Source of the DNA: Spirochaetales bacterium
GTDB lineage: Bacteria > Spirochaetota > Spirochaetia > Treponematales > Treponemataceae
Direction: 5' to 3'
DNA: 64,000 bases
Assembly: GCA_003246765.1 (NCBI GenBank)
Contig: QKDA01000231.1
Span: 25 to 64,024, forward strand
Part shown: piece by piece, positions 1,845-35,157 of the stretch
Layout of the letters: the number at the start of each line of letters is the position of its first letter
Position numbering within the stretch: the first letter of the stretch is position 1
The notes under the pieces: generated by a model
Databases searched by the model: none
The model's input: the letters and a program-made list of their open reading frames with translations, nothing else
What the model was told of the DNA's origin: nothing
Program-made: the position numbers and the translations under genes

Positions 1845-3431
1845 ATGCTGCCCACTCGGTTTTTCAACAATTCGGGACCAGTCAACGACCGGGATCACTT
1901 TTGCGTCCCTCCCATTCAGCGTCTTGACGTACGCAAAATTTGGCAGCTTATCCTCCAGAAGAAATATTTCCTAATCCGCGGTCCCAAGCAGTGCGGCAAG
2001 ACGTCCTTTTTGCTCGCCTTCGCTGAAATGCTCAATAGGGACGGCAAGGCCAAGTGCCTGTACATGAACGTGGAGTCGCTTCGGGGCGTTCAGGAAGACG
2101 TGGAGGAATGCATCCGCAGCATCCTATTCGAAATTTCCTCCCGGGCGCGGGATACCTTCGACGACGATTACCTGGAAGACCTGGTTCCCGAAATTCTCGC
2201 GAAGCGGGGTCCCTACCAGGCCTTAAACGAGTTTCTTACCCAATGGTCAAAGCGCTCAGACAAGCCCGTGGTCCTCTTCATAGACGAGATCGACACCCTG
2301 GACGGCTCGGTGCTGACCCCGATCTTGAGCCAAATTCGGGCGGGTTACGACAAACGGCCCGCCTTCTTTCCCCAGAGCATCGTTTTTTGCGCTACCCATG
2401 ACGTGATCGACAAGCAGTTCAACATCAAGGACGCCAGCATCCAGATCGGATTCTTTAAGCGGGACGAGCTGGACGCCATGTTCTCTTCCTACGCCGATGA
2501 ATTCGGACTCAAGCTGACCCGGGAGGCCCTGGACAGGGTTTGGGACTATACCTCCGGTCAGCCGTGGATCGTGAGCAGCCTGGCGGAGGAAATTTTCTCC
2601 GTCATCGTCCCCGCGAAGAAAATTACCCGGATCATGGCGCGCCCCGTGGATGAGGCCTTTCAGAATCTGCTGGCCCGCCGGGGCAACCACCTGGACTTTC
2701 TGACCACCCAGCTCCGGGACGAGCGGGTAATGCGTTGCCTCATGCCCATTCTCACGGGGGGACTCCTGGCGGATCAGGTATCCGAGACGGATATCGAATA
2801 TACCCGGGAACTGGGCATTATCGCCCCGAACAGGAAAACCTTCGACAATATGCTTTATACCCAGGTACTTCCCGGGGTCCTGTTCGGTTCCGTCACCTAC
2901 ATGATCAACCTTTCGGCGGAACGGTTTCTCAGGAGCGACCAGAGCATCGATTCGGGAAAGCTGGTGAAGTCCTTCCAGTTGTTCTACCAAAACCACATAG
3001 ACCGGCTCGTGGAAAGGATTAATTACGGTCCCGCAGGCTACGTACTGGTTTTCCAGGCGCTCCTCAAGAAGCTGGAGGACGGAAACTGCACTATAACCAG
3101 GGATTTCTCCGCCGAAAGGGGATTTACCGAGGTTACCGTCAATTGGCATTTCCCCGCCGAGCAGAGCGTGATCTTTCTCATCAAGCTGGTCAGGGTTCAA
3201 TCCATCGACCGCTACAAGCAGATGGTCCCCTCCCTGGCGGAGTGTTTCCAGATCTGGAGCTCTTCGCACCCCAACCTGTCCGGAGGCATGGGAACCGAAA
3301 CCTCCCCGGGGACGACTCCGGAAGTCCATGTCATCGCCATCAACACGAACCCGAAGTTTCAGTGGGAGGACCGAATGCCCCATGAGAAGCGGATCGTCGG
3401 CGGGGTCCCGGTTCACGTGTGGGGCTTTTAG
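1845..3431 (+). CDS. AAA-family ATPase of unknown role
   Basis: Walker A GPKQCGKTS and Walker B VVLFIDEID. ATG 1845 is preceded by GAAGG; the ORF-track start at 1803 is an alternative. The C-terminal about 250 aa is unassigned. Confidence 0.7.
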   Translation: MLPTRFFNNSGPVNDRDHFCVPPIQRLDVRKIWQLILQKKYFLIRGPKQCGKTSFLLAFAEMLNRDGKAKCLYMNVESLRGVQEDVEECIRSILFEISSRARDTFDDDYLEDLVPEILAKRGPYQALNEFLTQWSKRSDKPVVLFIDEIDTLDGSVLTPILSQIRAGYDKRPAFFPQSIVFCATHDVIDKQFNIKDASIQIGFFKRDELDAMFSSYADEFGLKLTREALDRVWDYTSGQPWIVSSLAEEIFSVIVPAKKITRIMARPVDEAFQNLLARRGNHLDFLTTQLRDERVMRCLMPILTGGLLADQVSETDIEYTRELGIIAPNRKTFDNMLYTQVLPGVLFGSVTYMINLSAERFLRSDQSIDSGKLVKSFQLFYQNHIDRLVERINYGPAGYVLVFQALLKKLEDGNCTITRDFSAERGFTEVTVNWHFPAEQSVIFLIKLVRVQSIDRYKQMVPSLAECFQIWSSSHPNLSGGMGTETSPGTTPEVHVIAINTNPKFQWEDRMPHEKRIVGGVPVHVWGF

Positions 3432-3518
3432 GGGGGATTCTCCAAAATTCCCCTTATTTGTCTGAATTCCGCGCCACCCCGTGATAAACTTGACCGTAAA
3501 AAGTCGAGGTAAGGGTTT

Positions 3519-4196
3519 TTGACAAACGAACAAGTCGATGCGAGAAATTGCAATATTTTCATAATCGGCCCCCAGAACCTTCAAAACGAATTCTTCACCT
3601 ATGTTATCCAGAAGGAGCTTTCGTTTCCCTGTTATCTTTATGACAAGGAATTGAACCCCCTACGGTCCGGAACGGCGGCGAAGGCCGAGGAAGCCGTCGG
3701 TAAAACGCTCCTTTTGATTGACGTGGAATTTCATTGCTTTGAGGAAATTATCGAGGCGGCTTCGGCCAAGCCCCTTTTTACGGATTCCTACGTGGCGTTG
3801 ATAAATCTTAAGGAAAACACCGGAATCGAAAAAAAGGCCCTCTCGAAAAACGTTCGCGGTTTTTTCTATAAAGACGATCATTTCGAGCTGTTCCTCAAGG
3901 GAGTGCGCAATATTCTCAACGGCGAGGTTTGGATTTCCCGGTCGGTATTGCTCCAATGCGTGTACGATGGCTTACGGGATAAACAGGGCGAACCGGAAGC
4001 CCGGAGTTGCCTGACTACCCGGGAAGTCGAAATCCTTTCCCTCGTTAGCCAGGGCGCCAGCAACGACGAAATTGCCCGAAAGATGTTCATCAGCACGAAT
4101 ACCGTGAAGACCCATCTCTATAACATATTTAAAAAAATCAACGTAACCAACCGTCTCCAGGCATCCCAGTGGGCTACCTTAAACATACTTGCGTAG
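3519..4196 (+). CDS. VpsT/CsgD-family LuxR-type transcriptional regulator
   Basis: C-terminal HTH TTREVEILSLVSQGASNDEIARKMFISTNTVKTHLYNIFKKINVTNRLQASQWA is nearly colinear with E. coli CsgD as I remember it. It has a receiver-like N-domain and a W-I-S-R motif at the position of the VpsT c-di-GMP motif. TTG start, with no in-frame ATG near the 5' end. Confidence 0.8.
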   Translation: MTNEQVDARNCNIFIIGPQNLQNEFFTYVIQKELSFPCYLYDKELNPLRSGTAAKAEEAVGKTLLLIDVEFHCFEEIIEAASAKPLFTDSYVALINLKENTGIEKKALSKNVRGFFYKDDHFELFLKGVRNILNGEVWISRSVLLQCVYDGLRDKQGEPEARSCLTTREVEILSLVSQGASNDEIARKMFISTNTVKTHLYNIFKKINVTNRLQASQWATLNILA

Positions 4197-4295
4197 GCGA
4201 TTTCACGATCACCGACCGGCGTAACGACTGAGTCGTAAAACAATCCGTCATAATCCAGGTCTATCGAAATATAAAAAGCGAAAAAACGGCTTTCG

Positions 4296-4324
4296 TTGAA
4301 AGTTGAGTATTCCCGTCCTATACT
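4296..4324 (+). promoter_or_regulatory. Candidate sigma-70 promoter for the repeat lipoprotein gene
   Basis: TTGAAA (4296-4301), 17-nt spacer, TATACT (4319-4324), about 130 nt upstream of ATG 4456. Confidence 0.4.
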
Positions 4325-4455
4325 CTTAACCATAAAGTTTATTCGCACGTATAAAAATCGTGAAATGCTCCCTTCTTCGGCCGATTATTTAAATTAATCC
4401 TGTTATCGGGAATGAAATCGAGTTTTTTACGAATTCTCCAACTAAGGAGTGAATA

Positions 4456-6432
4456 ATGAAACGTTTCCTGATTTTCGCAATGGCAAGTTCCGTTGCGTTT
4501 ATGCTTGCATCGTGCGTTGATTTCAACGCGAACGCTAATAACGCTAATTTGTCTGAATTGGTTCTTTCAAGCGGGGAACTAACGCCTGCATTTAAACCGG
4601 ATGTTACGAAGTATACGGTCTCCGTAGATTATACGGTTACGGAAATAACGGCGACGGGAACGGCCGAAAGCGCCGCCGCGACGGTCGGCGGGCAATCTGG
4701 CCAAAGCGTATCCCTGGCGGTAGGAGACACGGATATCGCCATCGAAGTGACTGCCGAGGACGGCGTAACGGTAAAAACCTACACCGTTACCGTGACCCGC
4801 GAAGAAGCGGGCCTGCCTTCTACAAACGCGAATCTTTCCGAAATACTATTGAGCGCGGGAAGCCTGACGCCCGCCTTCGCGCCGAACGTTACCGCGTATG
4901 CCGTATCCGTACCTTACGGGGTGACGGAAATAACGGCGACGGGAACGGCCGTAAGCGCCGCCGCAGCGGTCGGCGGGCAATCGGGGCAAAGCGTTCCCCT
5001 GGCGGTAGGGGAGACGGATATCGCCATCGAAGTGACTGCCGAGGACGGCGTAACGGTAAAAACCTACACCGTTACCGTGACCCGCGAAGAAGCGGTCCTG
5101 CCTTCCACTAACGCGAATCTATCCGAAATAGTATTGAGCGCGGGAAGCCTGACGCCCGCCTTCGCGTCTAACGTGACCGCGTATGCCGTATCCGTACCTT
5201 ACGGGGTGACGGAAATAACGGCGACGGGAACGGCAGAAAGCGCCGCCGCGACGGTCGGCGGGCAATCGGGGCAAAGCGTATCCCTGGCGGTAGGGGATAC
5301 GGATATCGCCATCGAAGTGACTGCCGAGGACGGCGTGACGGTAAAAACCTATACCGTCACCGTGACCCGCGAAGAAGCGGTCCTGCCTTCCGCAAACGCA
5401 AATCTTTCCAAAATAGAATTGAGCGCGGGAAGCCTGACGCCCGCCTTCGCGCCTAACGTGACCGCGTATGCCGTATCCGTACCTTACGGGGTGACGGAAA
5501 TAACGGCGACGGGAACGGCCGAAAGCGCCGCCGCGGCGGTCGGCGGGCAATCGGGACAAAGCGTTTCCCTGGCGGTAGGAGACACGGATATCGCGATCGA
5601 TGTGACGGCCGAGGACGGAGTGACGGTAAAAACCTACACCGTTACCGTGACCCGAGCGAATATCGTCAAGGTAATCAACGCAAACAATTACGATCCTTCC
5701 GCCTTGTCCGACGGTGAAATCCTGGCAGCAGCTTCGCTTGACGTCTATCTCGAACACGCTTCCGTCGGGGGCTATATCACCGGCGGCGCGCCGATCGGAG
5801 ACTGGCCCTTCGATGGATTGGGGGCGCTTGCGGCCGCGGACTCTCGATACGCTTGCGGCCGAGCATCGTGGGAAAGCCCCTCAACGTCTTCTTGGAACGG
5901 GGTAGCGAACGCGGCATGGTTCGACACAAATAACGGGTTGGGAGATCTTTTCAGGGGGAATCCTTCCGCCGCGACCAAGGTGTCTGGGTTTGAGGCTGCC
6001 ATGAACTATTCCGCCGGGGTTTTAGGCGCCGCCGTAGACGTTGCCATGTTTAAATTCTGCTACATCGATTCGCCCGCCTCCTCAACCGTTCAGTTCGATA
6101 CCGCCCGCGCGGCCATAGAGCGGCTGGAAGCAAGTTATCCAAACGTGACCTTCGTGTGGTGGACGATGCCGATCGAGGAAACCGGTAACGCGGCCCGCCA
6201 GGGGTATAACGATCTCGTGCGTACCTACTGCAACGATAACGACAAGTGGCTTTACGATATAGCTGATTTGGAAAGCCATGACGATTCGGGTATGGCCTAT
6301 ACGGATTCTTTCGGCCATGAGGTTCTGTACGCCGGATACAGCCATGACGGGGGACATCCCAACGGCCCGGGTGTTTTTAAACTCGCGAAAGCGTACTGGA
6401 AACTGATCGCCGAAATCGCGAAAACTCGTTGA
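4456..6432 (+). CDS. Secreted lipoprotein: four cadherin-like beta-sandwich repeats plus a C-terminal SGNH-like domain
   Basis: RBS AAGGAG and lipobox MLASC. Four 95-aa repeats (NANLSE..LS.G.LTPAF.P.VT.Y.VSV...VTEITATGTA) resemble the Cadherin-like (PF12733-type) repeat. The C-terminal about 250 aa is paralogous to the product of 12442-13257 (F/MKFCY.D, YPNVTFV, D.GH.NG). Confidence 0.75.
   Translation: MKRFLIFAMASSVAFMLASCVDFNANANNANLSELVLSSGELTPAFKPDVTKYTVSVDYTVTEITATGTAESAAATVGGQSGQSVSLAVGDTDIAIEVTAEDGVTVKTYTVTVTREEAGLPSTNANLSEILLSAGSLTPAFAPNVTAYAVSVPYGVTEITATGTAVSAAAAVGGQSGQSVPLAVGETDIAIEVTAEDGVTVKTYTVTVTREEAVLPSTNANLSEIVLSAGSLTPAFASNVTAYAVSVPYGVTEITATGTAESAAATVGGQSGQSVSLAVGDTDIAIEVTAEDGVTVKTYTVTVTREEAVLPSANANLSKIELSAGSLTPAFAPNVTAYAVSVPYGVTEITATGTAESAAAAVGGQSGQSVSLAVGDTDIAIDVTAEDGVTVKTYTVTVTRANIVKVINANNYDPSALSDGEILAAASLDVYLEHASVGGYITGGAPIGDWPFDGLGALAAADSRYACGRASWESPSTSSWNGVANAAWFDTNNGLGDLFRGNPSAATKVSGFEAAMNYSAGVLGAAVDVAMFKFCYIDSPASSTVQFDTARAAIERLEASYPNVTFVWWTMPIEETGNAARQGYNDLVRTYCNDNDKWLYDIADLESHDDSGMAYTDSFGHEVLYAGYSHDGGHPNGPGVFKLAKAYWKLIAEIAKTR
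4540..5654 (+). repeat. Four in-frame tandem repeats of 285 bp inside the lipoprotein CDS
   Basis: The unit start motif aacgc(g/t/a)aat recurs at 4540, 4825, 5110 and 5395, exactly 285 nt apart. Units 2-4 are near-identical at the DNA level. Confidence 0.9.
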
Positions 6433-6942
6433 CGAAATCCCGTTTCGAGACTGCTCCTGACGGGGGTGGCGAGTCTCTTGATTCAAACATTCGATTACAT
6501 GCGTTCGGTGTCCATTGAGTATCAGGTTTGAATTTAAATAATACCTCAAGGTTCCTTCATAGCCTTTAAGACTGGCGACGAATGCATTCGCAATATTCTG
6601 TGTAGTGATGAATATCAAAATGGATCACTGTTAAAAGTGCGAAGTTAAGCCCCGAGTGTATACCTATGTTTGCGATATGCATTCTCGATACTCATCAACG
6701 TAATGCTTTTTGCGTCAAAAGTATTAGTTGCTTGTAATGGTGTTCGATGGTAACCGATTCAACGTCTCATGTTCGCTACTACTTTAGTAGTAGGACCAGG
6801 GTAGTGATTATTACCGAAAAAAATCTATCAAAATCATACCGCAGGTTCATGGAATGTTATAGAAATTGGAGATATCTTAAGTAAAGTGCATTTTGATTCG
6901 AGTTTTTCTCAAAAGGTTTGATGTTAAGAAGGAGAAGGTATA

Positions 6943-8109
6943 ATGAAAACCTCTAGAAAACGATATCGGATGCCTGGCCTCATTCAAGTTCAACTTTCGA
7001 CCAAAAACAATATTTTTTCCGCTTCTGAATTCGAGTCCCTGGTACGTTACGAGAGAATTCGATCCGACAGGAACGGAAATCATTTTTCAGTCGCGGTTTT
7101 TAGCATGCCCGATATGACCCAGATTATTCCCCAACGGGTTATTTCCGAACTGGCAAACCTATCAAGGGCGATAGATTGCATCGGGTGGAGCGAGTCGAGC
7201 CAGGTAAGCGTTTTATTGCCGGATACGAGCAAAGACGGAGCGGAGGTATTCTCGAAAAAAGTCGTCGAGGGTGTCCTTGAGACCTGTTCGATTTGCATGG
7301 ACGTTTCCCTGTATTCATACCCCGAGCACTGGCTCGCAAATTCGACCGAGTTCGCGTATATCCCGGAGGCTGAACATCAGGAGTTGCGATCCTTTCGCGA
7401 ACGGCTCGAGGTTTTGTTCGTCAAGAAAATACCCGGTTGGAAGCGGGTTACCGACATCACATTCTCGCTCATGCTTGTCGTGCTATGTTTGCCTATTCTT
7501 GCCATAACGGCGATATATATCAAATTGGTGTCTCCCGGACCGGTCATATTCAAGCAAACCAGAATCGGCTACAAGGGACTTCCGTTCACGCTCTATAAGT
7601 TCAGGTCCATGCATGTGGCAAACAACCAGGGCTTTCACGGTAAGCATGCCCAGCAGTTCATCAAGGACGGCGACGTGCCGATGGAAAAACTCGATGGCCA
7701 CGATTCGCGCATCATTTTTGGCGGGAAGATTTTGCGAAAGTCTTGCATCGATGAATTGCCCCAATTATTGAACGTGCTGCGCGGCGACATGAGCTTAGTC
7801 GGCCCGAGGCCTTGCATTCCCTACGAGGCAAAGGAATATTTGCGGTGGCATACGCACCGGTTCGACGTTCTCCCCGGGCTTTCTGGATTATGGCAGGTCA
7901 GCGGAAAAAACAAGCTGACGTTCAAGCAAATGATCAGACTCGATATCACCTATTGCCAAACGATATCCTTCTTTAGGGATATGGCAATCATATTTATGAC
8001 CCCGATATCAATCGTTAAAATGATCGTCGAGGCTATCCTTTCCCGCGAAAGCTTCAAGGCAGACGGAAGCGGCGGATCGGGCCAGAACGGCATGGTCATC
8101 AACCTGTAG
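6943..8109 (+). CDS. Priming polyprenyl-phosphate sugar-phosphate transferase (bacterial sugar transferase, WbaP/EpsB type) with an N-terminal degenerate GGDEF-like domain
   Basis: RBS AAGGAG. C-terminal PGT blocks: KLVSPGPVIFKQTRIGYKGLPFTLYKFRSM, DELPQLLNVLRGDMSLVGPRP, PGLSGLWQVSG. The N-terminal about 130 aa aligns to the GGDEF fold (see finding). Confidence 0.85.
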   Translation: MKTSRKRYRMPGLIQVQLSTKNNIFSASEFESLVRYERIRSDRNGNHFSVAVFSMPDMTQIIPQRVISELANLSRAIDCIGWSESSQVSVLLPDTSKDGAEVFSKKVVEGVLETCSICMDVSLYSYPEHWLANSTEFAYIPEAEHQELRSFRERLEVLFVKKIPGWKRVTDITFSLMLVVLCLPILAITAIYIKLVSPGPVIFKQTRIGYKGLPFTLYKFRSMHVANNQGFHGKHAQQFIKDGDVPMEKLDGHDSRIIFGGKILRKSCIDELPQLLNVLRGDMSLVGPRPCIPYEAKEYLRWHTHRFDVLPGLSGLWQVSGKNKLTFKQMIRLDITYCQTISFFRDMAIIFMTPISIVKMIVEAILSRESFKADGSGGSGQNGMVINL

Positions 8110-8407: not shown

Positions 8408-9772
8408 TTAACGAATTTCGTGTATCTTTAGCTTGTACGAAAGGACCCTCTCGGATATCCCCAAAAGTTTCGCTGCTGATTTTTGATTGCCCGACGTCCT
8501 GGTCATCGCTTGGGTTATAAGGCGGTATTCCGCATCCTTCAGCTTAATTCCCTCAGGCGGCAGCTTAATGTACTCGTTATCCGCGGGAATCGGGGCAAAT
8601 CCATCAGCTTGATCGAAAAGCAAATCCAGGTCGTTGATCTGTATCACCGGGCCATCAGACAATAACACGGCCCGGTCCAGGGTGTTTTCCATCTCGCGGA
8701 TATTTCCGGGCCAACGGTAATTCGTCAGCCTCTGTATCGCTTCCGGGGAGAATCCCTTGATCTTCTTTTTCATTTTCGTATTAGAGAGCTTGAGGAAATA
8801 CATGAGGAGCAGGCTTACGTCTCCTTCCCGTTCCCTCAGGGCTGGCAGCCGTATGGTTATCACGTTAAGCCGGTAGAAAAGGTCTTCGCGAAAATGACCG
8901 CTCGCGATCATGGACGTCAGGTTCTTGTTGGTCGCCGACAGGATTCGCACGTCGGTCTTTTTTGTCTCGTTCGACCCGAGTCGCTCGAACTCCTTTTGTT
9001 GGAGCACGCGAAGCAGTTTCGCCTGCGTGACGAGCGAGAGATCGGCAACCTCGTCGAGAAACAGGGTCCCTCCGTCCGCGTATTCGAATCGGCCTACCCT
9101 GGTCCGGTCCGCCCCCGTGAAGGCGCCGCGTTCGTAACCGAACAACTCGCTTTCCAGAAGCTGTTCCGGAAGCGCTGCGCAATTGACCTTAACGTACGGT
9201 CCTTCGGACCGTAAGCTTTTTTCGTGTATTATCTGGGCTATCAGGTCTTTGCCCGTGCCGGTTTCGCCTAGGAGAAGGACGCTAACGTCGGTTCGGCTTA
9301 CCCTCTCTACTTTCCTGAATATCTCCGTGACCGCGGCGCTTTGCCCGATGAACTTCCCGTAGTAGGCCATGCCGCGTTCCGACATTTCTTCCTGGTTTAT
9401 TGCCTTTCGTTTGTTCTCGAAAGCCCGCTTAACCTGGAAATAAAGCTCGGCATCGTAATACGGCTTTTGGACCAGGCGAAAAACGTAAGAGGATGCCTGA
9501 TCCAATTCATGGGTGACGTCGATATTGTTCGGGCAAAGGACTATTATCGCGCATTCGGGCATTTTGCGCTTCAGATCCGGAAGCAACGATTTGATATCGA
9601 TGTCGGGAATGGAATAATCGACGATCAAAACGTCGTAGCTGTCAACTTCGACGAGCGATTCAAGCGCGAGAAAATTTGCCGCGTAGTCGACTTGATGGTC
9701 GAGCACGTTAAAGAACTGGCGAATGTGATCGTAGTTTTCTTCGTTGTTATCGATTATCAGTATCTTTCCCAT
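8408..9772 (-). CDS. Sigma-54-dependent response regulator (NtrC family enhancer-binding protein)
   Basis: Receiver domain (VLIVDYSIPD), AAA+ sigma-54 interaction domain (GETGTGKDLIA, ESELFGYERGAFTGA) and a C-terminal Fis-type HTH (SAAKLLGISERVLSYKLK). Confidence 0.9.
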   Translation of the reverse strand: MGKILIIDNNEENYDHIRQFFNVLDHQVDYAANFLALESLVEVDSYDVLIVDYSIPDIDIKSLLPDLKRKMPECAIIVLCPNNIDVTHELDQASSYVFRLVQKPYYDAELYFQVKRAFENKRKAINQEEMSERGMAYYGKFIGQSAAVTEIFRKVERVSRTDVSVLLLGETGTGKDLIAQIIHEKSLRSEGPYVKVNCAALPEQLLESELFGYERGAFTGADRTRVGRFEYADGGTLFLDEVADLSLVTQAKLLRVLQQKEFERLGSNETKKTDVRILSATNKNLTSMIASGHFREDLFYRLNVITIRLPALREREGDVSLLLMYFLKLSNTKMKKKIKGFSPEAIQRLTNYRWPGNIREMENTLDRAVLLSDGPVIQINDLDLLFDQADGFAPIPADNEYIKLPPEGIKLKDAEYRLITQAMTRTSGNQKSAAKLLGISERVLSYKLKIHEIR

Positions 9773-9941
9773 CTTTGCGTCCTTGGGAAAGCATATCTCA
9801 ATTTAAGGAGACAATCCTGAAAAGAGCGGTTAATATGACCGTTTTGGTATAGAATTATAGGGCGGAGGAGACATTACGAAAACGTTAACGCTAGATGACC
9901 TACAGAGAATCAGTTTTTTTTCGAACCTATCGTCGTTTGAT

Positions 9942-12440
9942 TTGCAGCAGATCGCGGAAATAGTGCAGGAACGGGAGTTCGGTCCTGACGAATTGATATT
10001 TGCGGAAAAAACGGAAGCCCATCATTTTTATATAATCGTCAGGGGCAAGGTAGAGATATCGAAGCTTTTTGAGGACGGCGAAAGGGCCGTTTTGTGCATT
10101 TTAAGCGACGGGGCCTTCTTCGGCGAAATCGCCTTACTCGACGAGGGGAAGCGTTCTTCCACCGTCACGGCGATCGAGCCCACGCTCGTCCTCATGATCT
10201 CGAAGGCAGATTTTGAGGGCTTGCTGTTTAGCGCCCCGGTTTTGACCCACCATATAATGCGCGAGCTGGGGTCTAGATTGCGTGAAACCGACGCGTTGCT
10301 GATATCGCACCTGACGCACAGGAATAAACAGTTATATCGCGCGTACATCGACACCATGACCCTTATCATCGATACGATAGAGTCGAGGAATATGCTTCCC
10401 GCGAGACAGAGCGCCAGGGTTACCGCGCTGGCGCTGGAATTGGGGAGGCAATTAGGCCTTGGCGAGATGGATCTTTTCCTCCTCGAGCTCAGCGCCCTTC
10501 TTCATGATCTCGGCATGTACACTATCCCTGACGAAACGCTGAACGCGAAATCAGTCTTGTCCGACGACGAGTTATCGACGATCCAGGCGCACAGCACAGA
10601 AAGCGCCAATATGGTTTCCTCGATTCCGATGCTACAGAAAATAATCCCTTTGATACGGCATCACCATGAGTGGTACAATGGGGGCGGTTATCCGGGCAAA
10701 ATCGGGGGGCGCGCCATACCGCGCGTAAGCCGGATCCTGGCGATCGCCGACGCCTACGTATCGATGACGGGGAATAGGCCGTACAGGGATAAAATGTCGA
10801 GAAATGAGGCGCTTGACGAAATACGCCGGCTTTCGGGGTCGCAGTTCGATCCCGAGTTTTCGGAGGTCTTCCTGAAGATGATGGGCACGAATATCCTGGA
10901 CCCGTTGAGCGGGATCGATGAATTGCAAAAAAAATTTACGGAGAAAGAAATGAATTTGGCTGACTACCTCTTGGTAAACGGGAAGGATGGCGATATCGCG
11001 GTCATTGACGGCGATCATCGGGTAACTTACGCTGAATTGAGGGACAAGGCAGGCTTGATCGCCGCTCAATTGAGCGAACGCGGATTGAAACCCGGGGATG
11101 CCGTGGGTATTCTCGGCCAGAACTCGGTGTTCTGGGTCGCCTCTTACCTCGCCGTACTGAAACTTTCCCTCATCGCGGTTCCTTTCTCGATTCTGTTGAC
11201 TCCCGAGGAGATATCGAGAAACGCGGAATGGGCCAAGTGCAAGGGCGTGCTGATGGATCGGCGCCAACAGAAAAAGTTCGACGGCGCGTTTCCCCCCGCG
11301 CTACCCCGGTTGCTTGACGATATCCTTGACGGGCCCGGGAAACCGCTTTGGCCCCATGCCTCGTCCTCCTTCGACACCCAAGCCGCCGCCGCCTACATGT
11401 TCACTTCGGGTACCACATCGAGGCCCAAGGCCGTCAGGATAACCCACGCCAATATCCAAAGCAATACGGCCAGCATAATCGAGTATCTCAGTCTCGCCAA
11501 AAGCGATCGCATGCTGGTTATTTTACCGTTCTTCTACTGTTTCGGCACGTCGCTCCTGCATACGCACCTGAGGGTCGGGGGGAGCGTGGTTATATGCAAT
11601 AGCTTCACCTTCCCCGAAATGGCGCTCGACCTGATGCAGCGTGAAGAGTGCACCGGTTTTGCCGGAGTTCCCTCCTCGTACCAGCTCCTCTTGAGGATAA
11701 GCACCTTTAAAACCCGGGAATTCCCGAAGTTGCGCCTGTTACAGCAAGCGGGGGGGAAATTGCATTCGGTATTGCTCGAGGAGTTGATGGAAAGCAAGCC
11801 AAACGTAAGGATCTTCGTGATGTACGGACAAACCGAGGCAACGGCGCGCTTGTCCTATTTACCGCCCGAAATGCTGCGGGATAAAATCGGTTCCATCGGC
11901 AGGGGAATCCCGGGCGTAACGCTCAGGGTTATGGGCGAGAACGGCGAGCCCGTGAAGCCGGGAGCGATTGGCGAAATTTATGCCCGCGGCGGGAATATAT
12001 CGCCCGGGTATTTAAACGATCCCGAGAGTACTGCCGCGAAATTCGTGGATGGGGAGCTTCATACGGGCGATTTGGCGATGCAGGACGAACAGGGATACAT
12101 CTTCGTGGTCGACCGAAAGGAAGACTTCATCAAGTCCTGGGGTTATCGGGTCAGCAGCCAGGAAGTCGAAAGCTGCGTGCTCGGCTTGCCGAACGTGGTT
12201 TCCGCCGCCGCGGTGGGCATTCCGGACTTGAGCGCCGGGGAATCGATCCACGTGTTCATCACGGTCAAACCGGGAACGGCCGTGAACGAAGAAACGGTAA
12301 TCGCAAGATGCCGCTCCCGCCTTGGAAAGCACATGATTCCGCAAAAGGTTCACGTAATAAAGGCGATGCCGCTAAATTCCAACGGGAAGGTGATGAAAAC
12401 CGCCTTAAGGCAAATGGCCAACGATGCCGGGGAGGGCTGA
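9942..12440 (+). CDS. Triple-domain fusion: cNMP-binding, HD-GYP, and AMP-forming acyl/aminoacyl ligase
   Basis: cNMP block FGEIALLDEGKRSSTVTA. HD-GYP blocks LLHDLGMY and HHHEWYNGGGYPGK. Adenylate-forming blocks MFTSGTTSRPKAV, YGQTEA and GDLAMQDEQGYIFVVDRKEDFIKSWGYRVS. TTG 9942 is the first canonical start, but the domain appears to begin upstream (frame open from 9861; see finding). Confidence 0.85.
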   Translation: MQQIAEIVQEREFGPDELIFAEKTEAHHFYIIVRGKVEISKLFEDGERAVLCILSDGAFFGEIALLDEGKRSSTVTAIEPTLVLMISKADFEGLLFSAPVLTHHIMRELGSRLRETDALLISHLTHRNKQLYRAYIDTMTLIIDTIESRNMLPARQSARVTALALELGRQLGLGEMDLFLLELSALLHDLGMYTIPDETLNAKSVLSDDELSTIQAHSTESANMVSSIPMLQKIIPLIRHHHEWYNGGGYPGKIGGRAIPRVSRILAIADAYVSMTGNRPYRDKMSRNEALDEIRRLSGSQFDPEFSEVFLKMMGTNILDPLSGIDELQKKFTEKEMNLADYLLVNGKDGDIAVIDGDHRVTYAELRDKAGLIAAQLSERGLKPGDAVGILGQNSVFWVASYLAVLKLSLIAVPFSILLTPEEISRNAEWAKCKGVLMDRRQQKKFDGAFPPALPRLLDDILDGPGKPLWPHASSSFDTQAAAAYMFTSGTTSRPKAVRITHANIQSNTASIIEYLSLAKSDRMLVILPFFYCFGTSLLHTHLRVGGSVVICNSFTFPEMALDLMQREECTGFAGVPSSYQLLLRISTFKTREFPKLRLLQQAGGKLHSVLLEELMESKPNVRIFVMYGQTEATARLSYLPPEMLRDKIGSIGRGIPGVTLRVMGENGEPVKPGAIGEIYARGGNISPGYLNDPESTAAKFVDGELHTGDLAMQDEQGYIFVVDRKEDFIKSWGYRVSSQEVESCVLGLPNVVSAAAVGIPDLSAGESIHVFITVKPGTAVNEETVIARCRSRLGKHMIPQKVHVIKAMPLNSNGKVMKTALRQMANDAGEG

Positions 12441-12441
12441 C

Positions 12442-13257
12442 ATGTCGTTCGCGCGAGGTAACCTAATAAAGACAGTCGTCATGATCTGCATGTCCGTATC
12501 GCTTACGGCATGCAAGGCGGATATTACGGGGGATGATTCGATGTTAAGCACCGTTCTCGGCAAGCTTCAGGATAGGGCCGTTTTTTTTGGGCATCAATCG
12601 GTCGGGCTGAATATTCTCGACGGGCTACGTGAGACATCAAAAAGGCTCGGGGCCGCCGAACCGGAGATCATCGAGACGCGGTCGCCTCCCGCTCAACGGG
12701 TACCGGGCGTCTACCACGCGATGATAGGCCAGAACGAAAGACCGCTCGAAAAAATAGCCGATTACGAATCGATCATGAGGGGCGGCATGGCCGAAGTTGT
12801 GGACGTTTCCTTCATGAAATTCTGCTATGTCGATTTTAACGAGAAAACCGATACGGAGTCCCTCTTTGAGGCGTATCGGAGTGTCATGTCCGGACTCGAG
12901 CGGGATTATCCGAATGTAACGTTCGTTTACCTGACGGTTCCCCTTCGGGCGGAGAGCCTCAAGGATCGTGTCAAGAATATCCTCGGCAGGTCGACTGACT
13001 CGCGCGAGGCAAACCTGAACCGGGAACGCTTCAACAGGCTGGTGAGGGCCGAGTACGCGGGAAAAAACCCGTTCTTCGACCTGGCCCTGGCGGAAGCCTC
13101 CTCGCGGAACGGAAACGTTATCGCGAGGAGATTCTCCGGGGAAACCTATTACTTGCTGCGGCGCGAATATACCGAAGATTTTGGCCACCTGAACGGTGAG
13201 GGTCGCTCTCGGGTAGTCGCCGCCATGTTGAGCGCTTTCTCGGGCTTCCTGGATTGA
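12442..13257 (+). CDS. Lipoprotein with an SGNH-like hydrolase/acyltransferase fold (tentative)
   Basis: ATG lies 1 nt after the ligase stop. Lipobox SLTAC. Blocks FFGHQSVG, IGQN and DFGHLNG are in the order of SGNH blocks I, III and V. It is paralogous to the C-terminus of the 4456-6432 product. Confidence 0.55.
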   Translation: MSFARGNLIKTVVMICMSVSLTACKADITGDDSMLSTVLGKLQDRAVFFGHQSVGLNILDGLRETSKRLGAAEPEIIETRSPPAQRVPGVYHAMIGQNERPLEKIADYESIMRGGMAEVVDVSFMKFCYVDFNEKTDTESLFEAYRSVMSGLERDYPNVTFVYLTVPLRAESLKDRVKNILGRSTDSREANLNRERFNRLVRAEYAGKNPFFDLALAEASSRNGNVIARRFSGETYYLLRREYTEDFGHLNGEGRSRVVAAMLSAFSGFLD

Positions 13258-14894: not shown

Positions 14895-15302
14895 ATGATT
14901 ATTGGAACAGGAACGGACATTTTGTCTACCCTTCGGGTGAAAGAATTGATGGATACAGCGGGGAGCTCCTTTATAGAACGCTGTTTCACCGCCTCGGAAC
15001 GGGAATACTGTTCCGGGAAACTGAAGCCCTGGCTCCATTTCGCGGCGAGGCTTGCCGCGAAGGAAGCCGTTATCAAAACCTTGAGGCTGCCTGCCTCGGA
15101 CGGAGTCCGACTCCGCGAGGCCGAGATCGTCCTGGACGGGAATCACGCTCCCGGCGTGATCCTTCACGGGAAGTTGCTCGCGCGGGCAAGGGAGCTTAAC
15201 GTGGGGACCATGCACGTATCCCTCTCGCATTCCGATGAATACGCCACCGCCACGGCGCTAGCCGAGGCGGCGGAACCGGGCAAGACTGTCAATGGACGGT
15301 GA
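14895..15302 (+). CDS. acpS: Holo-ACP synthase (4'-phosphopantetheinyl transferase)
   Basis: MIIGTGTDIL..., FTASEREYC, FAARLAAKEAVIKTL and HVSLSHSDEYATA match the AcpS family pattern over about 125 aa. Confidence 0.85.
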   Translation: MIIGTGTDILSTLRVKELMDTAGSSFIERCFTASEREYCSGKLKPWLHFAARLAAKEAVIKTLRLPASDGVRLREAEIVLDGNHAPGVILHGKLLARARELNVGTMHVSLSHSDEYATATALAEAAEPGKTVNGR

Positions 15303-16324: not shown

Positions 16325-18316
16325 TTATTTCTTGGATGTCCTGTCGAAGACGGCAAGATCGCCCTGGGGGTTCCCGAAACGTTCAGCGGAACCGCCGCGC
16401 ACGATGAATTGCTCATGCAGCAATTGCGTGGATAGCACGGCGACGACCCGCATGTTGTCCGTGTTGCTCATCTTCGATCCGCCCACCTTGGAGCATTTCT
16501 CGAACAGGCTCCGGACCATCGCGGGATTGAAGATGCCCGCGTCCTTTACCGACGTCCCGAAAACCAGGTCGGTGATCCAATCCGGCGCCCCCGGCGCGAA
16601 GAATGCCGCGGCGTCCGGAGCCCGATAGGGTTGTTTTGGCCTCCGAAGGATGGTTTCCGGGACTAGGTCCGCGAAAGTCTTCTTGAGGATGTGCTTTTCG
16701 TCGAGGGCGAGCAGTTTTTGCCAATGGGGCAATCCGTGCGCGAAATTCGCGAAATCCGGGTCGAGAAACGGGAAACGGCCTTCCACGGAATTTCCCATAA
16801 GCATCCTGTCGCCCTGGGACGAGAGAATATATCCCGGCAGTATCGTATTCAGCTCAAGCCATTGCGCCCTCGCGAGCGGGGACCATTCCGCGCAATCGGC
16901 GGGCATGCGTGACACGAGGGCCTCGTCCACACGCGTATTCCCCTCCGCCAGCCTGAATTCCTCGGTAAGCATACCCTTGAGAGCAGCCGTGGAATCCCAA
17001 CGAGGCCTGTGCGAGAGCGCGGGGTCCTGAGGATCCAGGTTTCGGCCGAAGAATGCCTGAGCGAAGGCGGGGGCCTTCCCGGGCGACCTATCCATCCAGG
17101 GATACAGGAGCTCGGCGGCCCTTGCCCGTTGCGCGGAGGAAGGATCCCGCGCCCAAAACCGCCGGATCATCGCTTCCCGAAAGATGTCGTACCCGCCGAG
17201 CATTTCGTCCGAACCCTCGCCGGTCACGACGACTTTATAGCCCGAAGAGCGCACGAATTTCGAAAGAAGGAACATCGGGGCGGGACCCGCCCGGAGGATG
17301 GGCCGTTCCGCGTGCCACACGACCTCGGGAAATACATTGGCTATGTCGGAGGAGGAAACCCTGACGTCGGTATGCTCGGTTCCGAGGCGGGTCGCCATTT
17401 CGTTCTGGAATGCCCCCTCGTCGAATTCCCCTTCCTCGAAACGGAGGGAGAACGTGCGCAACGGCGCATCCGTGTAGGTGCAGATGATCGCCGCGGTCAC
17501 GGAGGAATCGATTCCCCCTGAAAGGTATGCCCCGACCGGAACGTCGCTCCGAAGAAATCGAAGCTTGGTCGCTTCGATGAGCAGCCTTCTCAGCTCGGCT
17601 CCGTTTTCCTCGATAGAAAGGTTTGTCTCGGGTACTGTCGGCGGGAATTGGTGTCGGTGGTATTGCTCGATCCGGAGCCGTCCGTTGGATAGCAGGGCCC
17701 AGTGGCCCGGAGGCAACTCGGATATGCCCCTATAGGGAGTGCGCGGGGCGACGGGGATCCAGAAGGTGAGTATTTCGTCCAAACCCTCTGGGTCAAAACC
17801 CCTCCCGAGAGTCGGGTCGGCGAAAAGAGCCTTGACTTCCGAGGCGAATATGAATTTCCCGTCGGCGAACGCGTAGTGCAGGGGAACTATTCCCGATGGA
17901 TCGCGGGAGAGCGCGAGTTCTCCGGTTCTTCGATCCCAAAGGGCGAAAGCCCATTGTCCGTTGAACCGGCCGAGGCATTTATGCCCCCACTCTTCCCAGG
18001 CATGAATGATTACCTCGGTATCGGACGAGGTGCTGAAACGGTGGCCCAGGGCTTTCAGTTCCGCCGTGAGCTCGACATAATTGAAAATCTCGCCGTTAAA
18101 GGTGATCCAAATGCTTTCGTTCTCGTTCGCTAAGGGTTGCGTGCCGCCGGCCCGGTCGATGATCGCCAGCCGGGTATGTCCGAGCAGGGCCCGCTCGTCG
18201 CGGAAATATCCCCGGCCGTCGGGTCCCCGGTGGTGCAGACGGTTCATCATAGCGAGAATCAATTCGGGATCCGGCGGGCCGTTACGCGCGGTAACCGCCC
18301 CGCAAATGCCACACAT
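16325..18316 (-). CDS. Asparagine synthase-like glutamine amidotransferase (class II, AsnB family)
   Basis: N-terminal nucleophile MCGICG and PP-loop YLSGGIDSSV. 663 aa. Confidence 0.9.
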   Translation of the reverse strand: MCGICGAVTARNGPPDPELILAMMNRLHHRGPDGRGYFRDERALLGHTRLAIIDRAGGTQPLANENESIWITFNGEIFNYVELTAELKALGHRFSTSSDTEVIIHAWEEWGHKCLGRFNGQWAFALWDRRTGELALSRDPSGIVPLHYAFADGKFIFASEVKALFADPTLGRGFDPEGLDEILTFWIPVAPRTPYRGISELPPGHWALLSNGRLRIEQYHRHQFPPTVPETNLSIEENGAELRRLLIEATKLRFLRSDVPVGAYLSGGIDSSVTAAIICTYTDAPLRTFSLRFEEGEFDEGAFQNEMATRLGTEHTDVRVSSSDIANVFPEVVWHAERPILRAGPAPMFLLSKFVRSSGYKVVVTGEGSDEMLGGYDIFREAMIRRFWARDPSSAQRARAAELLYPWMDRSPGKAPAFAQAFFGRNLDPQDPALSHRPRWDSTAALKGMLTEEFRLAEGNTRVDEALVSRMPADCAEWSPLARAQWLELNTILPGYILSSQGDRMLMGNSVEGRFPFLDPDFANFAHGLPHWQKLLALDEKHILKKTFADLVPETILRRPKQPYRAPDAAAFFAPGAPDWITDLVFGTSVKDAGIFNPAMVRSLFEKCSKVGGSKMSNTDNMRVVAVLSTQLLHEQFIVRGGSAERFGNPQGDLAVFDRTSKK

Positions 18317-18318
18317 CG

Positions 18319-18540
18319 CTATACCCCCAATTTATCAAGTGCTATATCGCGAAGGGCTTCCCGCGAACCCAGGTCGCGCGACGCGATATCCGAGTCTGTA
18401 AGCGTTAGCGAGAGGCATTCCTCCAGGAATAATGCCGCCTCCAGCGCGGATAAGGCCGGGTCGCGCAAAGGCAGCCGCGACGCGTAAAATTCGTCGATGA
18501 TCGAATCGATATCGTTAGCGGTCATTATTAGTTCCCTCAT
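18319..18540 (-). CDS. 73-aa protein, possibly carrier-protein-like
   Basis: LSALEAALFLEECLSLTLTDSDI resembles the ACP helix II region (DSLxxVELxxxLEExFxxxIxDxD), with Ser in LSAL as a possible attachment site. It abuts the asnB-like start (3-nt gap). Confidence 0.35.
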   Translation of the reverse strand: MRELIMTANDIDSIIDEFYASRLPLRDPALSALEAALFLEECLSLTLTDSDIASRDLGSREALRDIALDKLGV

Positions 18541-20767: not shown

Positions 20768-21022
20768 ATGAATGGTGTAAAAGAACAGGTACGAGATTTC
20801 ATCGTGGCGAACTTTTTGTTCGGAGACGCCTTCCGCATGCCCGGCGAGGCAGAATCCCTGATAGAGAAGGGGATCATCGACTCCACGGGTATCCTCGAAT
20901 TGATAGGATTTCTTGAATCGACCTTCGATTTCCACGTAGAAGACGCCGAGACGGTCCCCCAGAACCTGGATAGCGTGTCGAATCTCGCTCGGTACATCTC
21001 CGAGAAAAAAAGCGCCGGTTAA
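20768..21022 (+). CDS. Acyl/aminoacyl carrier protein
   Basis: 84 aa with the GIIDSTGILELIGFLESTF phosphopantetheine-attachment pattern (DS motif). Confidence 0.8.
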   Translation: MNGVKEQVRDFIVANFLFGDAFRMPGEAESLIEKGIIDSTGILELIGFLESTFDFHVEDAETVPQNLDSVSNLARYISEKKSAG

Positions 21023-28820: not shown

Positions 28821-30161
28821 ATGGGCGAGAACCTCAGGATTGCCAACGAGTACGCGAACTCGTCGTACCTTCATCCCCTGGTGGCGCTCCTTCTCGCGGT
28901 CATCATACCGATGATCCTGGTACGATCCCGAAAAGCCGTATTGGTTTCCATGCTTATCGTGATGAACTTCGTAACGTCCGCGCAAAGGATATCCCTCGCG
29001 GGAGTGGACCTTCCGATCATGCGCATCGTTATAATTCTGGCGGTTTTCCGCATAATCATGACCAGGGAATACCTGTGGATCAAGCCGCTGAACCTGGACG
29101 TCGTAATCGTCATCCAGATGGTGATTTCCGCGATCGACGGTTTTTTACGAACCCCGAGCTTTTCCGAGATGGTTTACGACGTTTCAACCCTGATCGATTC
29201 GCTCGGCGGCTATCTGATCGTGAGGACGATGATTCGGGATCGGGAGGACTTTCTAGCGATGGTCCGCGCGTTAATGTGGATCAGCTTCCCGATCGTGCTG
29301 TTATTCATCGCGGAACGGCTTACCGGCCGGAACCCGATGGCGTCTTTCGGCGGCGTCGCCGCGTATACTTGGATACGGGAGGGGAAGATGCGCGTTCAGG
29401 GCCCCTATCCCCACGTGATTCTCGCCGGCGCCCTTTGGGCGACGGTCGTACCGCTTTTCCTCGCGTCCGCCTTTCGAGGCGGCAAGAAAAATCCCGGTAT
29501 GATCGCCGCGGCTATCGCGGGACTGATCATCATCGTGCTATGCGCGTCGAGCACGCCGCTCATGTCCGTGCTGGCGGGATTGGGGGCCATAACCCTCTTT
29601 TGGCAACGCAACCTGATAGTGCGCCTGCAGTCCGCGGCGCTCATCGGCCTCGTCGGGCTCGCGGCGGTATGGGATCATCCCATCTGGTATATCGTCGCGA
29701 AAATCGACTTTACCGGCGGCTCTACCGGATGGTTCCGGTTCAATCTCATCGATCAGTACATTCGGAGATGGCCTGAATGGTTCGCTATCGGGGTTCGGTC
29801 GACGGCCGGTTGGGGTTATGGATTGATCGACGTGTGCAATCAATACGTTTCGGCGGGGACGAATGGCGGGATAATCGGACTGGCGTGTTTTCTCGCGTCG
29901 ATCGCGATTTCCTTTTCCTACGTCGGCACGCTCGCCCTGGTCGCAGACGACAATGACGTAAAGCGGGATTATTGGTTCCTGGGAGCCTCGTTGCTCGTCC
30001 ACTTGATGAACTTCGTCGGCGTCTCGTACTTTTCCCACATCACCTTTTGCTGGTGGCTCACCCTCGGCTTTATCGGCAGCCTCTACCAGGCGAAGTTCGG
30101 CCAACGAGAGCCCCGCGCGATAATGCGCCTCCCCCTGGAGGCGAAGGCCGCGTTCAATTAA
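28821..30161 (+). CDS. Polytopic membrane protein, Wzy/O-antigen-ligase-like polymerase (tentative)
   Basis: About 10-12 hydrophobic segments with a larger loop, positioned inside the GT cluster. No diagnostic motif was verified. Confidence 0.5.
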   Translation: MGENLRIANEYANSSYLHPLVALLLAVIIPMILVRSRKAVLVSMLIVMNFVTSAQRISLAGVDLPIMRIVIILAVFRIIMTREYLWIKPLNLDVVIVIQMVISAIDGFLRTPSFSEMVYDVSTLIDSLGGYLIVRTMIRDREDFLAMVRALMWISFPIVLLFIAERLTGRNPMASFGGVAAYTWIREGKMRVQGPYPHVILAGALWATVVPLFLASAFRGGKKNPGMIAAAIAGLIIIVLCASSTPLMSVLAGLGAITLFWQRNLIVRLQSAALIGLVGLAAVWDHPIWYIVAKIDFTGGSTGWFRFNLIDQYIRRWPEWFAIGVRSTAGWGYGLIDVCNQYVSAGTNGGIIGLACFLASIAISFSYVGTLALVADDNDVKRDYWFLGASLLVHLMNFVGVSYFSHITFCWWLTLGFIGSLYQAKFGQREPRAIMRLPLEAKAAFN

Positions 30162-34957: not shown

Positions 34958-35157
34958 AAAGAACTCCTTGGCGCCGGAAATTAATTTCGTGTGTCCGACG
35001 CACTGGAGATATAGCAATGAATGTGCCAACTGACAATTTTTTTTAAAGCGGTTATTTCTTTGCGGGATAAAGAAATAATTAAATGGCCATTTTAGGCGAT
35101 TTAAGAAATAAGTCCATTCTGATAATTACAATTTTGGAGAGAGATACGAATTTGTAA

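Follow-up and report, generated by a model that had tools for sequence, protein, structure and literature searches.

The DNA analyzed here (the window) is a 64,000-nt stretch from a Spirochaetales bacterium (assembly GCA_003246765.1, contig QKDA01000231.1, positions 25 to 64,024, forward strand). The source is a metagenome-assembled genome (MAG) of 273 contigs that is 91% complete and whose relatives are Treponematales. The window is an exopolysaccharide (EPS) locus, with genes for a priming transferase, glycosyltransferases, a flippase, a Wzz-like protein, and an SLBB export protein. Within this locus, one open reading frame (ORF) at 9942-12440 on the plus strand joins a cyclic nucleotide monophosphate (cNMP)-binding domain, an HD-GYP domain, and an adenylate-forming (ANL) ligase in a predicted product of 832 amino acids (aa), according to the ORF finder, which placed the first codon at TTG 9942. 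The features of the fused gene are the following.

9873..12440, plus strand: full fused coding sequence (ORF-finder start TTG 9942; frame open from 9861)
9864..9875, plus strand: Shine-Dalgarno (SD)-like GGAGGA (9864-9869), 3-nt spacer, and ATT 9873; probable non-canonical start
9972..10226, plus strand: cyclic-nucleotide-binding domain (PF00027) with an intact phosphate-binding cassette, FGEIALLDEGKRSSTV, containing G61, E62, R71, and S72
10362..10856, plus strand: degenerate HD-GYP domain (PF13487; residue alignment to 4MCW and 5Z7C)
10857..10949, plus strand: linker at the former gene boundary, residues 306-336; unconserved in the junction alignment with relatives and predicted to be disordered
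10927..10934, plus strand: homopolymer of eight A residues (A8), on which the fusion depends (run-length simulation)
10940..10952, plus strand: internal ribosome-binding site that has been kept (GGAG, 10940-10943), followed by ATG 10950, where the stand-alone ligases begin (MN..DYLL)
10950..12440, plus strand: class I ANL ligase, 496 aa (PF00501, PF13193; complete core motifs)

Domain content, start, and junction of the fused gene

Domains of the 832-aa product were assigned with Pfam hidden Markov models (HMMs), and every match lay far above the curated cutoff. The cNMP_binding model (PF00027) matched residues 11-95 (E value, 1.3e-23; 83.2 bits against a cutoff of 27.5), and HD_5/HD-GYP (PF13487) matched residues 141-305 (6.8e-41), with the HD model at residues 157-273 (4.2e-17). 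AMP-binding (PF00501) was located at residues 349-691 (1.2e-70; 238.7 bits) and AMP-binding_C (PF13193) at residues 741-816 (4.7e-15; 56.7 bits). An earlier note on this DNA had described an ORF with three modules. Four Pfam domains bear this description out, the HMMs detect both the HD-GYP and the cNMP regions, and all strings quoted in that note occur in the translation.

From 9861, the frame of the fused gene runs through 859 codons uninterrupted by a stop. The cNMP domain already begins within the 27 codons 5' of TTG 9942, and no ATG, GTG, or TTG separates this TTG from the preceding in-frame stop (9858). ATT 9873, located 3 nt downstream of the GGAGGA motif, is the probable start of the fused gene. 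The same layout (SD, 3 to 4 nt, AT[TC] ACG/AAG AAA) was also found in the related loci L008/L096, L015, and L002. A weak non-canonical ATT/ATC start behind a strong GGAGG-like site thus seems to be a trait of the cNMP/HD-GYP gene family, and its conservation suggests that initiation of the sensor is deliberately weak, or sensitive to IF3, relative to that of the ligase.

The two halves meet at a junction that reads ...GAATTGC-AAAAAAAA-TTTACGGAGAAAGAA-ATG. The A8 run is positioned 15 nt 5' of ATG 10950, and the GGAG motif is well spaced before this codon. ATG 10950 begins the sequence MNLADYLL, which is the N terminus of every stand-alone ligase of the family. Since the ligase has kept its own SD and ATG, a free ligase is expected in addition to the fused product. 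In the simulation, shortening the run to A7 caused the upstream frame to end at the TGA of an ATGA overlap, giving products of 336 and 496 aa, as in the relatives; with A9, the upstream frame met a stop four codons later. The claim of a single ORF made in the earlier note therefore stands as far as the frame is open and free of stops, but it depends on A8. The fused relative L015 has an A9 run at the equivalent position, and the unfused relatives have A5-A6 or an A-rich stretch there.

The length of the A8 run was taken from the assembled sequence, and the quality of the assembly bears on it. Contig statistics (N50, 18 kb; minimum, 2.5 kb) are consistent with a short-read MAG. The assembly has no excess of homopolymer frameshifts: genome-wide, an indel at runs of at least 7 would lengthen an ORF in 3 to 6% of cases, compared with 5% at random positions. 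JGI, NCBI, and Logan all have records of the same protein. Together with the occurrence of fusions in three data sets, these observations indirectly favor a real A8. Slippage during transcription or replication is documented at runs of 8 to 9 A residues, and bacteria use it to fuse ORFs (PMC1088944), so a mixed output of fused and free proteins is possible. The genome contains 291 A/T runs of length 8 and 102 of length 9.

In the AlphaFold model of the full-length protein, both halves are folded, with a predicted local distance difference test (pLDDT) score above 90 for the ligase. The linker (model residues 342-353) has a pLDDT below 50, and this low confidence fits a flexible tether derived from the former gene boundary.

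Adjacent genes and repeated fusion in related loci

The whole protein was searched against a collection of 5.8 billion proteins, and the combination of HD_5 and AMP-binding was judged among the scored candidates. One other fused protein was found among them, namely, P0002 (889 aa; 59% identity), which comes from a JGI metagenome and has the synteny of the window; the remaining top matches listed were stand-alone ligases of about 492 aa (57 to 71% identical). A search with the N-terminal half, limited to long proteins, revealed AMP-binding only in P0001 and P0002. A scan of metagenomes added a third fused frame, L015, with 865 codons (JFJP01 metagenome). With one further protein among the scored candidates and one metagenome contig, the architecture is as unusual as the earlier note had supposed. 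A profile search of the whole library with the full protein was uninformative on architecture, its best 150 matches being multimodule nonribosomal peptide synthetases and double ligases.

In eight distinct related loci, the two halves are encoded by separate adjacent genes, with a cNMP/HD-GYP gene of about 335 aa followed by a ligase gene of about 495 aa. The ligase lies in another frame or past a stop in these pairs, and the product sizes are 333 to 345 aa and 492 to 498 aa. The unfused loci are L001 (junction identical in L006, from genome G010), L007 (genome G011), L002 (identical to L005, genome G006), L004 (genome G015), L008 (also seen as L096, genome G028), L016, L017, and L018. The synteny common to the pair loci consists of a divergent sigma-54 enhancer-binding protein gene, then the cNMP/HD-GYP gene, and then the ligase gene. 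The corresponding activator gene of the window is the following.

8408..9772, minus strand: sigma-54 enhancer-binding response regulator, divergent from the fused gene (Pfam and NCBIfam)

Only the window, P0002, and L015 have fused ORFs. These three did not constitute one clade in the tree of either half: the window sequence paired with the unfused P0003 (99/97) and next, weakly, with L015, and P0002 was placed elsewhere. In L004, where the cNMP/HD-GYP protein is separate, its C-terminal tail is a homologue of the P0002 linker. The tree topology and this homology together indicate at least two independent fusions. Judged from the sequences, the fusion is a lineage-specific join of conserved adjacent genes and not an old architecture. 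Repeated fusion is a classic signal of interacting partners. A literature search for the cNMP/HD-GYP-ligase gene pair or for the ligase cassette described below found nothing specific.

Conserved cNMP domain and degenerate HD-GYP domain

The phosphate-binding cassette of the cNMP domain is conserved in all 11 family members, and matches of this domain in the PDB include PKG, PKA-R, CRP, and the cNMP domain of Bd1971. The cNMP sensor function is predicted to be conserved in the family.

Residues of the HD-GYP domain were aligned to those of PmGH (4MCW) and V-cGAP3 (5Z7C), with PmGH numbering used for losses. Kept in the window protein are H188/D189, H217, H241/H242, G249-Y250-P251, D270, and R279-P-Y-R282; all but the last of these match the HD dyad, the metal ligands H250, H276/H277, and D305 of PmGH, and the GYP motif. 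Lost are E185 (L152 in the window), H189 (Q156), K225 (M192), D308 (V273), D281 (N246), and KPG (AKS). Regarding the contacts to cyclic di-GMP (c-di-GMP), KPG is thus replaced by AKS, and RxY[K/R] is present as R279-P-Y-R282. In PmGH, each of the alanine mutations H189A, K225A, and D308A abolishes activity (Bellini et al., PMC4159591). The HD and GYP signatures that the earlier note had called intact are present as letters, but the other catalytic residues H189, K225, and D308 are missing.

Comparison across the family revealed that the position of K225 is M or L in 11 of 11 members and that of D308 is E, V, or I. The first His (H189) is kept in seven members, which retain the full His set and DGxGYP; it is lost in the window, L016, L017, and L018. 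The four members without the first His have the longest branches. For the N-terminal half, the terminal branch of the window sequence is 1.14, compared with a median of 0.25; for the ligase half, the values are 0.4 and 0.3. The HD-GYP half of the window protein has thus evolved about four times faster than its counterparts in the relatives, whereas the ligase half is ordinary. Because the window lacks residues whose mutation inactivates PmGH, the direct c-di-GMP phosphodiesterase role considered in the earlier note is doubtful. Hydrolysis of c-di-GMP is doubtful for the family and unlikely for the window protein.

In the survey by Galperin and Chou (preprint, 10.1101/2021.11.05.467447), HD-GYP domains are typically found at the C terminus, and inactive HD-GYP domains act via protein-protein interaction. 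Genome-wide, there are 9 class III cyclase domains and about 41 GGDEF domains. Taken together, the residue comparisons make a cNMP a better-supported signal than c-di-GMP.

Two observations concern individual relatives. In L018 (JFJP01035477.1), the HD-GYP protein at 72-1154 misses about 22 residues (PYR...SGSQF) near the C terminus as well as the first metal-binding His; this deletion is either a further decay of the domain or an assembly defect. In L002 (GCA_942493045.1), two class III cyclase genes and a gene for a stand-alone cNMP-binding protein are located at 3058-7219, within 7 kb upstream of the ligase and just past the sigma-54 activator gene. This neighborhood fits a local cNMP circuit.

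Ligase and its cross-phylum cassette

The core motifs of the ligase (TSGTTSRPK, YGQTE, TGD, DRKEDFIKSWGYRVS, and the C-terminal GK) are invariant in the ligase alignment, and the C-terminal catalytic Lys is present. The nearest solved structures are those of an oxalate-CoA ligase (8e-61) and a malonyl-CoA synthetase. Membership in DltA was rejected on scores. TIGR03098 (exosortase A-associated ligase) and TIGR03108 (XrtA/PEP-CTERM amidotransferase) are among the best NCBIfam relatives of the ligase and of an AsnB-like enzyme of the locus, respectively, and share the EPS setting. With 294 bits against a cutoff of 592 for the ligase and 409 bits against 817 for the AsnB-like enzyme, the window proteins score far below the thresholds and are not members; both families are functionally uncharacterized. 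The genes of the locus that are associated with the ligase are the following.

12442..13257, plus strand: periplasmic SGNH-fold lipoprotein, ligase partner (lipobox LTAC; AlphaFold and Foldseek)
14895..15302, plus strand: AcpS-type phosphopantetheinyl transferase, syntenic in L001 and L002
15289..16284, minus strand: NadE-like amidating enzyme, cassette member
16325..18316, minus strand: AsnB-like amidating enzyme, cassette member
20768..21022, plus strand: 84-aa acyl carrier protein (ACP), probable ligase acceptor; divergent, with an IDSTG serine motif

The earlier note had placed an SGNH-like lipoprotein next to the fused gene and an acpS gene and an ACP gene in the same locus, and all three were recovered. 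The lipoprotein had no Pfam match at all. In its AlphaFold model (pLDDT, 91.7), which has an SGNH fold, Foldseek gave a probability of 1.0 for PAF-AH, sialate O-acetylesterase, PatB, and OafB, with template modeling (TM) scores of 0.45 to 0.6, and S59, N104, D252, and H255 are invariant. The SGNH gene lies directly 3' of the ligase gene in L095, L004, L015, L016, L017, L019, and L020. The ACP gave weak matches to NCBIfam ACP models, and a homologue matches PF00550.

The ligase alignment was scanned against species-representative genomes, and the closest 80 GTDB loci (L096-L175; 38 to 66% identical) were used for neighbor counts within 4 kb of the ligase. These loci come from Treponematales, Chloroflexota, Actinomycetota, Acidobacteriota, Planctomycetota, Bacteroidota, Clostridium, Thiocapsa, and archaea. 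The counts were as follows.

NadE-like gene: 55 of 80 loci
AsnB-like gene: 49 of 80 loci
ACP gene of the window's type: 48 of 80 loci, often immediately 5' of the ligase gene
SGNH protein gene: 11 of 80 loci

In L116 (563-6285), the order is AsnB-like gene, ACP gene, NadE-like gene, ligase gene, and SGNH gene, all on one strand. The ligase thus belongs to a widespread, apparently uncharacterized cassette consisting of an ACP, the ligase, an AsnB-like enzyme, a NadE-like enzyme, and sometimes a periplasmic SGNH lipoprotein. The proximity of an ACP gene in 48 of the 80 loci and the AcpS gene in the window locus suggest that the ligase very probably serves a carrier protein, in agreement with the charging role proposed in the earlier note. 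The nearest solved relatives, which act on oxalate and malonate, hint at an amidated dicarboxylate.

A Logan contig (SRR13394437; L095, 1-3193) carries P0003, a ligase that is 71% identical, with the SGNH gene directly 3' and with neither a cNMP/HD-GYP gene nor an activator gene in the 885 nt upstream. A membrane relay that could pass on the acyl group, whether an MBOAT or another type, was not found. A candidate relay of 446 aa at 28821-30161 was rejected, as it is unrelated to the 453-aa ACP neighbor in L001.

Proposed explanation and its alternatives

On balance, we consider it somewhat probable that carrier loading for EPS decoration is gated by an HD-GYP adaptor that senses a cNMP and has weak catalytic activity or none. 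A sigma-54 activator and cNMP/HD-GYP regulatory pair would have been recruited to the ligase cassette in Treponematales. The window gene would be a young in-frame fusion of two neighboring, translationally coupled genes in a Treponematales EPS locus, which may have arisen via a one-base frame change in the poly-A run just 5' of the ligase's ribosome-binding site. Two products would be expected, namely, a low-abundance full-length protein from ATT and free ligase from the internal ATG. The HD-GYP domain would no longer degrade c-di-GMP but would act as a cNMP-controlled adaptor that binds and gates the ligase, and the repeated fusions would record this sensor-ligase contact. The ligase would load a small acid, possibly a dicarboxylate, onto the dedicated ACP; the ACP-bound acid would be amidated and passed to the polymer, and the SGNH protein would have an extracytoplasmic role. 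Levels of cyclic AMP (cAMP) or cyclic GMP (cGMP) would then be reflected in the acyl decoration of the polysaccharide. The sequences show which domains are present, that the gene derives from a gene pair, that the single frame needs A8, which HD-GYP residues are degenerate, and in what cassette the ligase occurs. We infer that the fusion protein is made and that its halves interact, and likewise the direction of control and the substrate; in-cis control of the ligase is deduced from gene adjacency and repeated fusion. The more specific version, in which a cNMP sensor directly gates an ACP-loading ligase via a dead HD-GYP domain in a repeatedly fused pair, with the poly-A run possibly toggling between tethered and free states, is put forward tentatively and appears doubtful as a whole.

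Several observations weigh against gating of the ligase by the sensor. In 79 of the 80 closest ligase loci in other species, no cNMP/HD-GYP gene is present, and the only locus with this gene is from Treponematales; the ligase clearly can do without such a partner. P0003 on L095, the nearest relative among the ligases, also lacks an HD-GYP gene directly upstream, within the 885 nt left on the contig, which means that even close relatives differ by gain or loss of the regulatory pair. Co-occurrence of the cNMP/HD-GYP gene with the sigma-54 activator gene is just as strict, so the activator could be the real partner, and fusions of operon neighbors can be neutral accidents. The full-length AlphaFold model gives no confident arrangement of the domains (predicted TM score, 0.59), and the linker is predicted to be disordered and is unconserved. 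Among RpfG-type proteins without the first His, one has been reported to be active (10.1101/2021.11.05.467447), so loss of this residue is no proof of inactivity. Finally, the A8 length is that given by the assembly, and one base decides whether there is a single ORF.

In an alternative reading, the N-terminal half is a cNMP-regulated phosphodiesterase or receptor of c-di-GMP or cyclic GMP-AMP that acts together with the divergent sigma-54 activator in setting EPS locus transcription, the ligase is incidental as the next gene of the operon, and the fusions are neutral readthroughs. This is rather unlikely in our estimate. It accounts for the presence of the activator orthologue only in loci that also bear the cNMP/HD-GYP gene and for a ligase family that normally lacks this gene; the seven members with the full His set and DGxGYP, the about 41 GGDEF domains of the genome, and the precedents of the cAMP-dependent c-di-GMP phosphodiesterases Tlr0485 and Bd1971 agree with it as well. 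However, none of the 11 members has kept the Lys corresponding to K225, without which PmGH is inactive (all have M or L), the position of D308 is E, V, or I, and the window copy has lost four further conserved positions. Moreover, fusion to the ligase arose at least twice, and no sigma-54 promoter was found in front of the fused gene. An assembly or sequencing artifact would reduce the gene to an A7 run and two genes, with a 336-aa cNMP/HD-GYP protein ending at an ATGA overlap with the ligase. The single base that decides the frame, the agreement of the A7 product sizes with those of the relatives, the intact internal SD and ATG, the absence of a fusion from all 40 related genomes, and the homopolymer (A9) at the L015 fusion speak for it. 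Against these points stand the short-read type of the MAG, which has no genome-wide excess of homopolymer-linked frameshifts, the identical protein in JGI, NCBI, and Logan, and the fused linker of P0002, which lacks the lysine run expected from poly-A. Three independent data sets would need three errors at one gene boundary, and we regard an artifact as improbable.

A switch at the poly-A run, with replication slippage (phase variation) or transcriptional slippage at A8/A9 giving fused and two-protein states, is compatible with gating of the ligase by the sensor, which would then be tethered only in some cells or transcripts. The runs in the window and L015 lie 13 to 15 nt before the ligase ATG, compared with A5-A6 in the unfused relatives; they have the length of the documented ORF-fusing sites (PMC1088944), and a change of -1 gives a clean ATGA-coupled pair in both. 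However, A-rich stretches are common before start codons, the 291 A/T runs of length 8 and 102 of length 9 in the genome mean that the run is not special, and P0002 is apparently fused without a poly-A-encoded lysine run. We consider such a switch very improbable.

Comparison with known systems

Bd1971, a cNMP-EAL protein (PDB entries 6HQ2-6HQ7), is reportedly a cAMP-dependent c-di-GMP phosphodiesterase, and its cNMP domain is a direct sequence match to that of the window. Like the window protein, Bd1971 and the GAF-HD-GYP protein Tlr0485 have an N-terminal cyclic-mononucleotide sensor followed by a domain of the c-di-GMP hydrolase type. Tlr0485 is cited in the HD-GYP survey as a cAMP-dependent c-di-GMP phosphodiesterase (10.1101/2021.11.05.467447). 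In contrast to both, the window HD-GYP domain lacks equivalents of K225, H189, D308, and KPG, and a ligase is located C-terminal to it. RpfG from Xanthomonas campestris and HnoD from Shewanella oneidensis are inactive HD-GYP proteins that signal by protein contact and have a degenerate metal site, as in the window. In RpfG, which regulates EPS via partner proteins (10.1101/2021.11.05.467447), H189 is replaced by Phe and E185 by Gly (PMC4159591). RpfG and HnoD have REC domains and GGDEF or PilZ partners, whereas the window protein has a cNMP sensor and the ligase as the proposed partner.

A known route of cAMP control over adenylate-forming enzymes is provided by the mycobacterial cAMP-GNAT proteins (MtPat Rv0998 and MsPat), in which the effector under control of a cNMP domain turns acetyl-CoA synthetase off (PMC8556138). 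These proteins act in trans by acetylating the C-terminal lysine of the ligase; the window has no GNAT, and its sensor is adjacent or fused to the ligase. In the DltABCD and AlmEFG systems, a cytoplasmic adenylating ligase and a small dedicated carrier protein decorate a surface polymer, and Dlt includes an extracytoplasmic SGNH-like protein. Neither Dlt nor Alm is known to contain a second-messenger domain. The window ligase differs in being closer to oxalate and malonate ligases than to DltA, and its cassette includes AsnB-like and NadE-like enzymes. Each of the known analogues thus covers one part, and in none of them does a cNMP sensor occur together with both an HD-GYP domain and a ligase.

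If the sensor gates the ligase, decoration of a biofilm polysaccharide would be under post-translational cAMP/cGMP control, a further layer besides the control by c-di-GMP and sigma-54 that the locus already displays, and a degenerate HD-GYP domain would gain a concrete non-catalytic role with an enzyme partner. Direct gating, if true, would represent a new output class of cNMP signaling and the first second-messenger-gated ANL enzyme. The conserved pairing is real regardless, and so is the cassette, which occurs in Bacteroidota, Acidobacteriota, Chloroflexota, Actinomycetota, Spirochaetota, and further groups. The locus also serves as a warning that a striking architecture can rest on one homopolymer base.

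Other observations at the locus

A 73-aa ORF at 18319-18540 on the minus strand lies between wzz and the AsnB-like gene and has syntenic counterparts of 68 to 76 aa in L001 and L002; it contains no clear DSL-type phosphopantetheine motif. A search for sigma-54 promoters across the window gave matches with up to two mismatches at chance level. One perfect -24/-12 consensus, TGGCACATTCATTGCT, was located at 35013-35028 on the minus strand, at the head of a PKD/beta-helix gene (33179-35029), and is likely a target of the activator encoded at 8408-9772.

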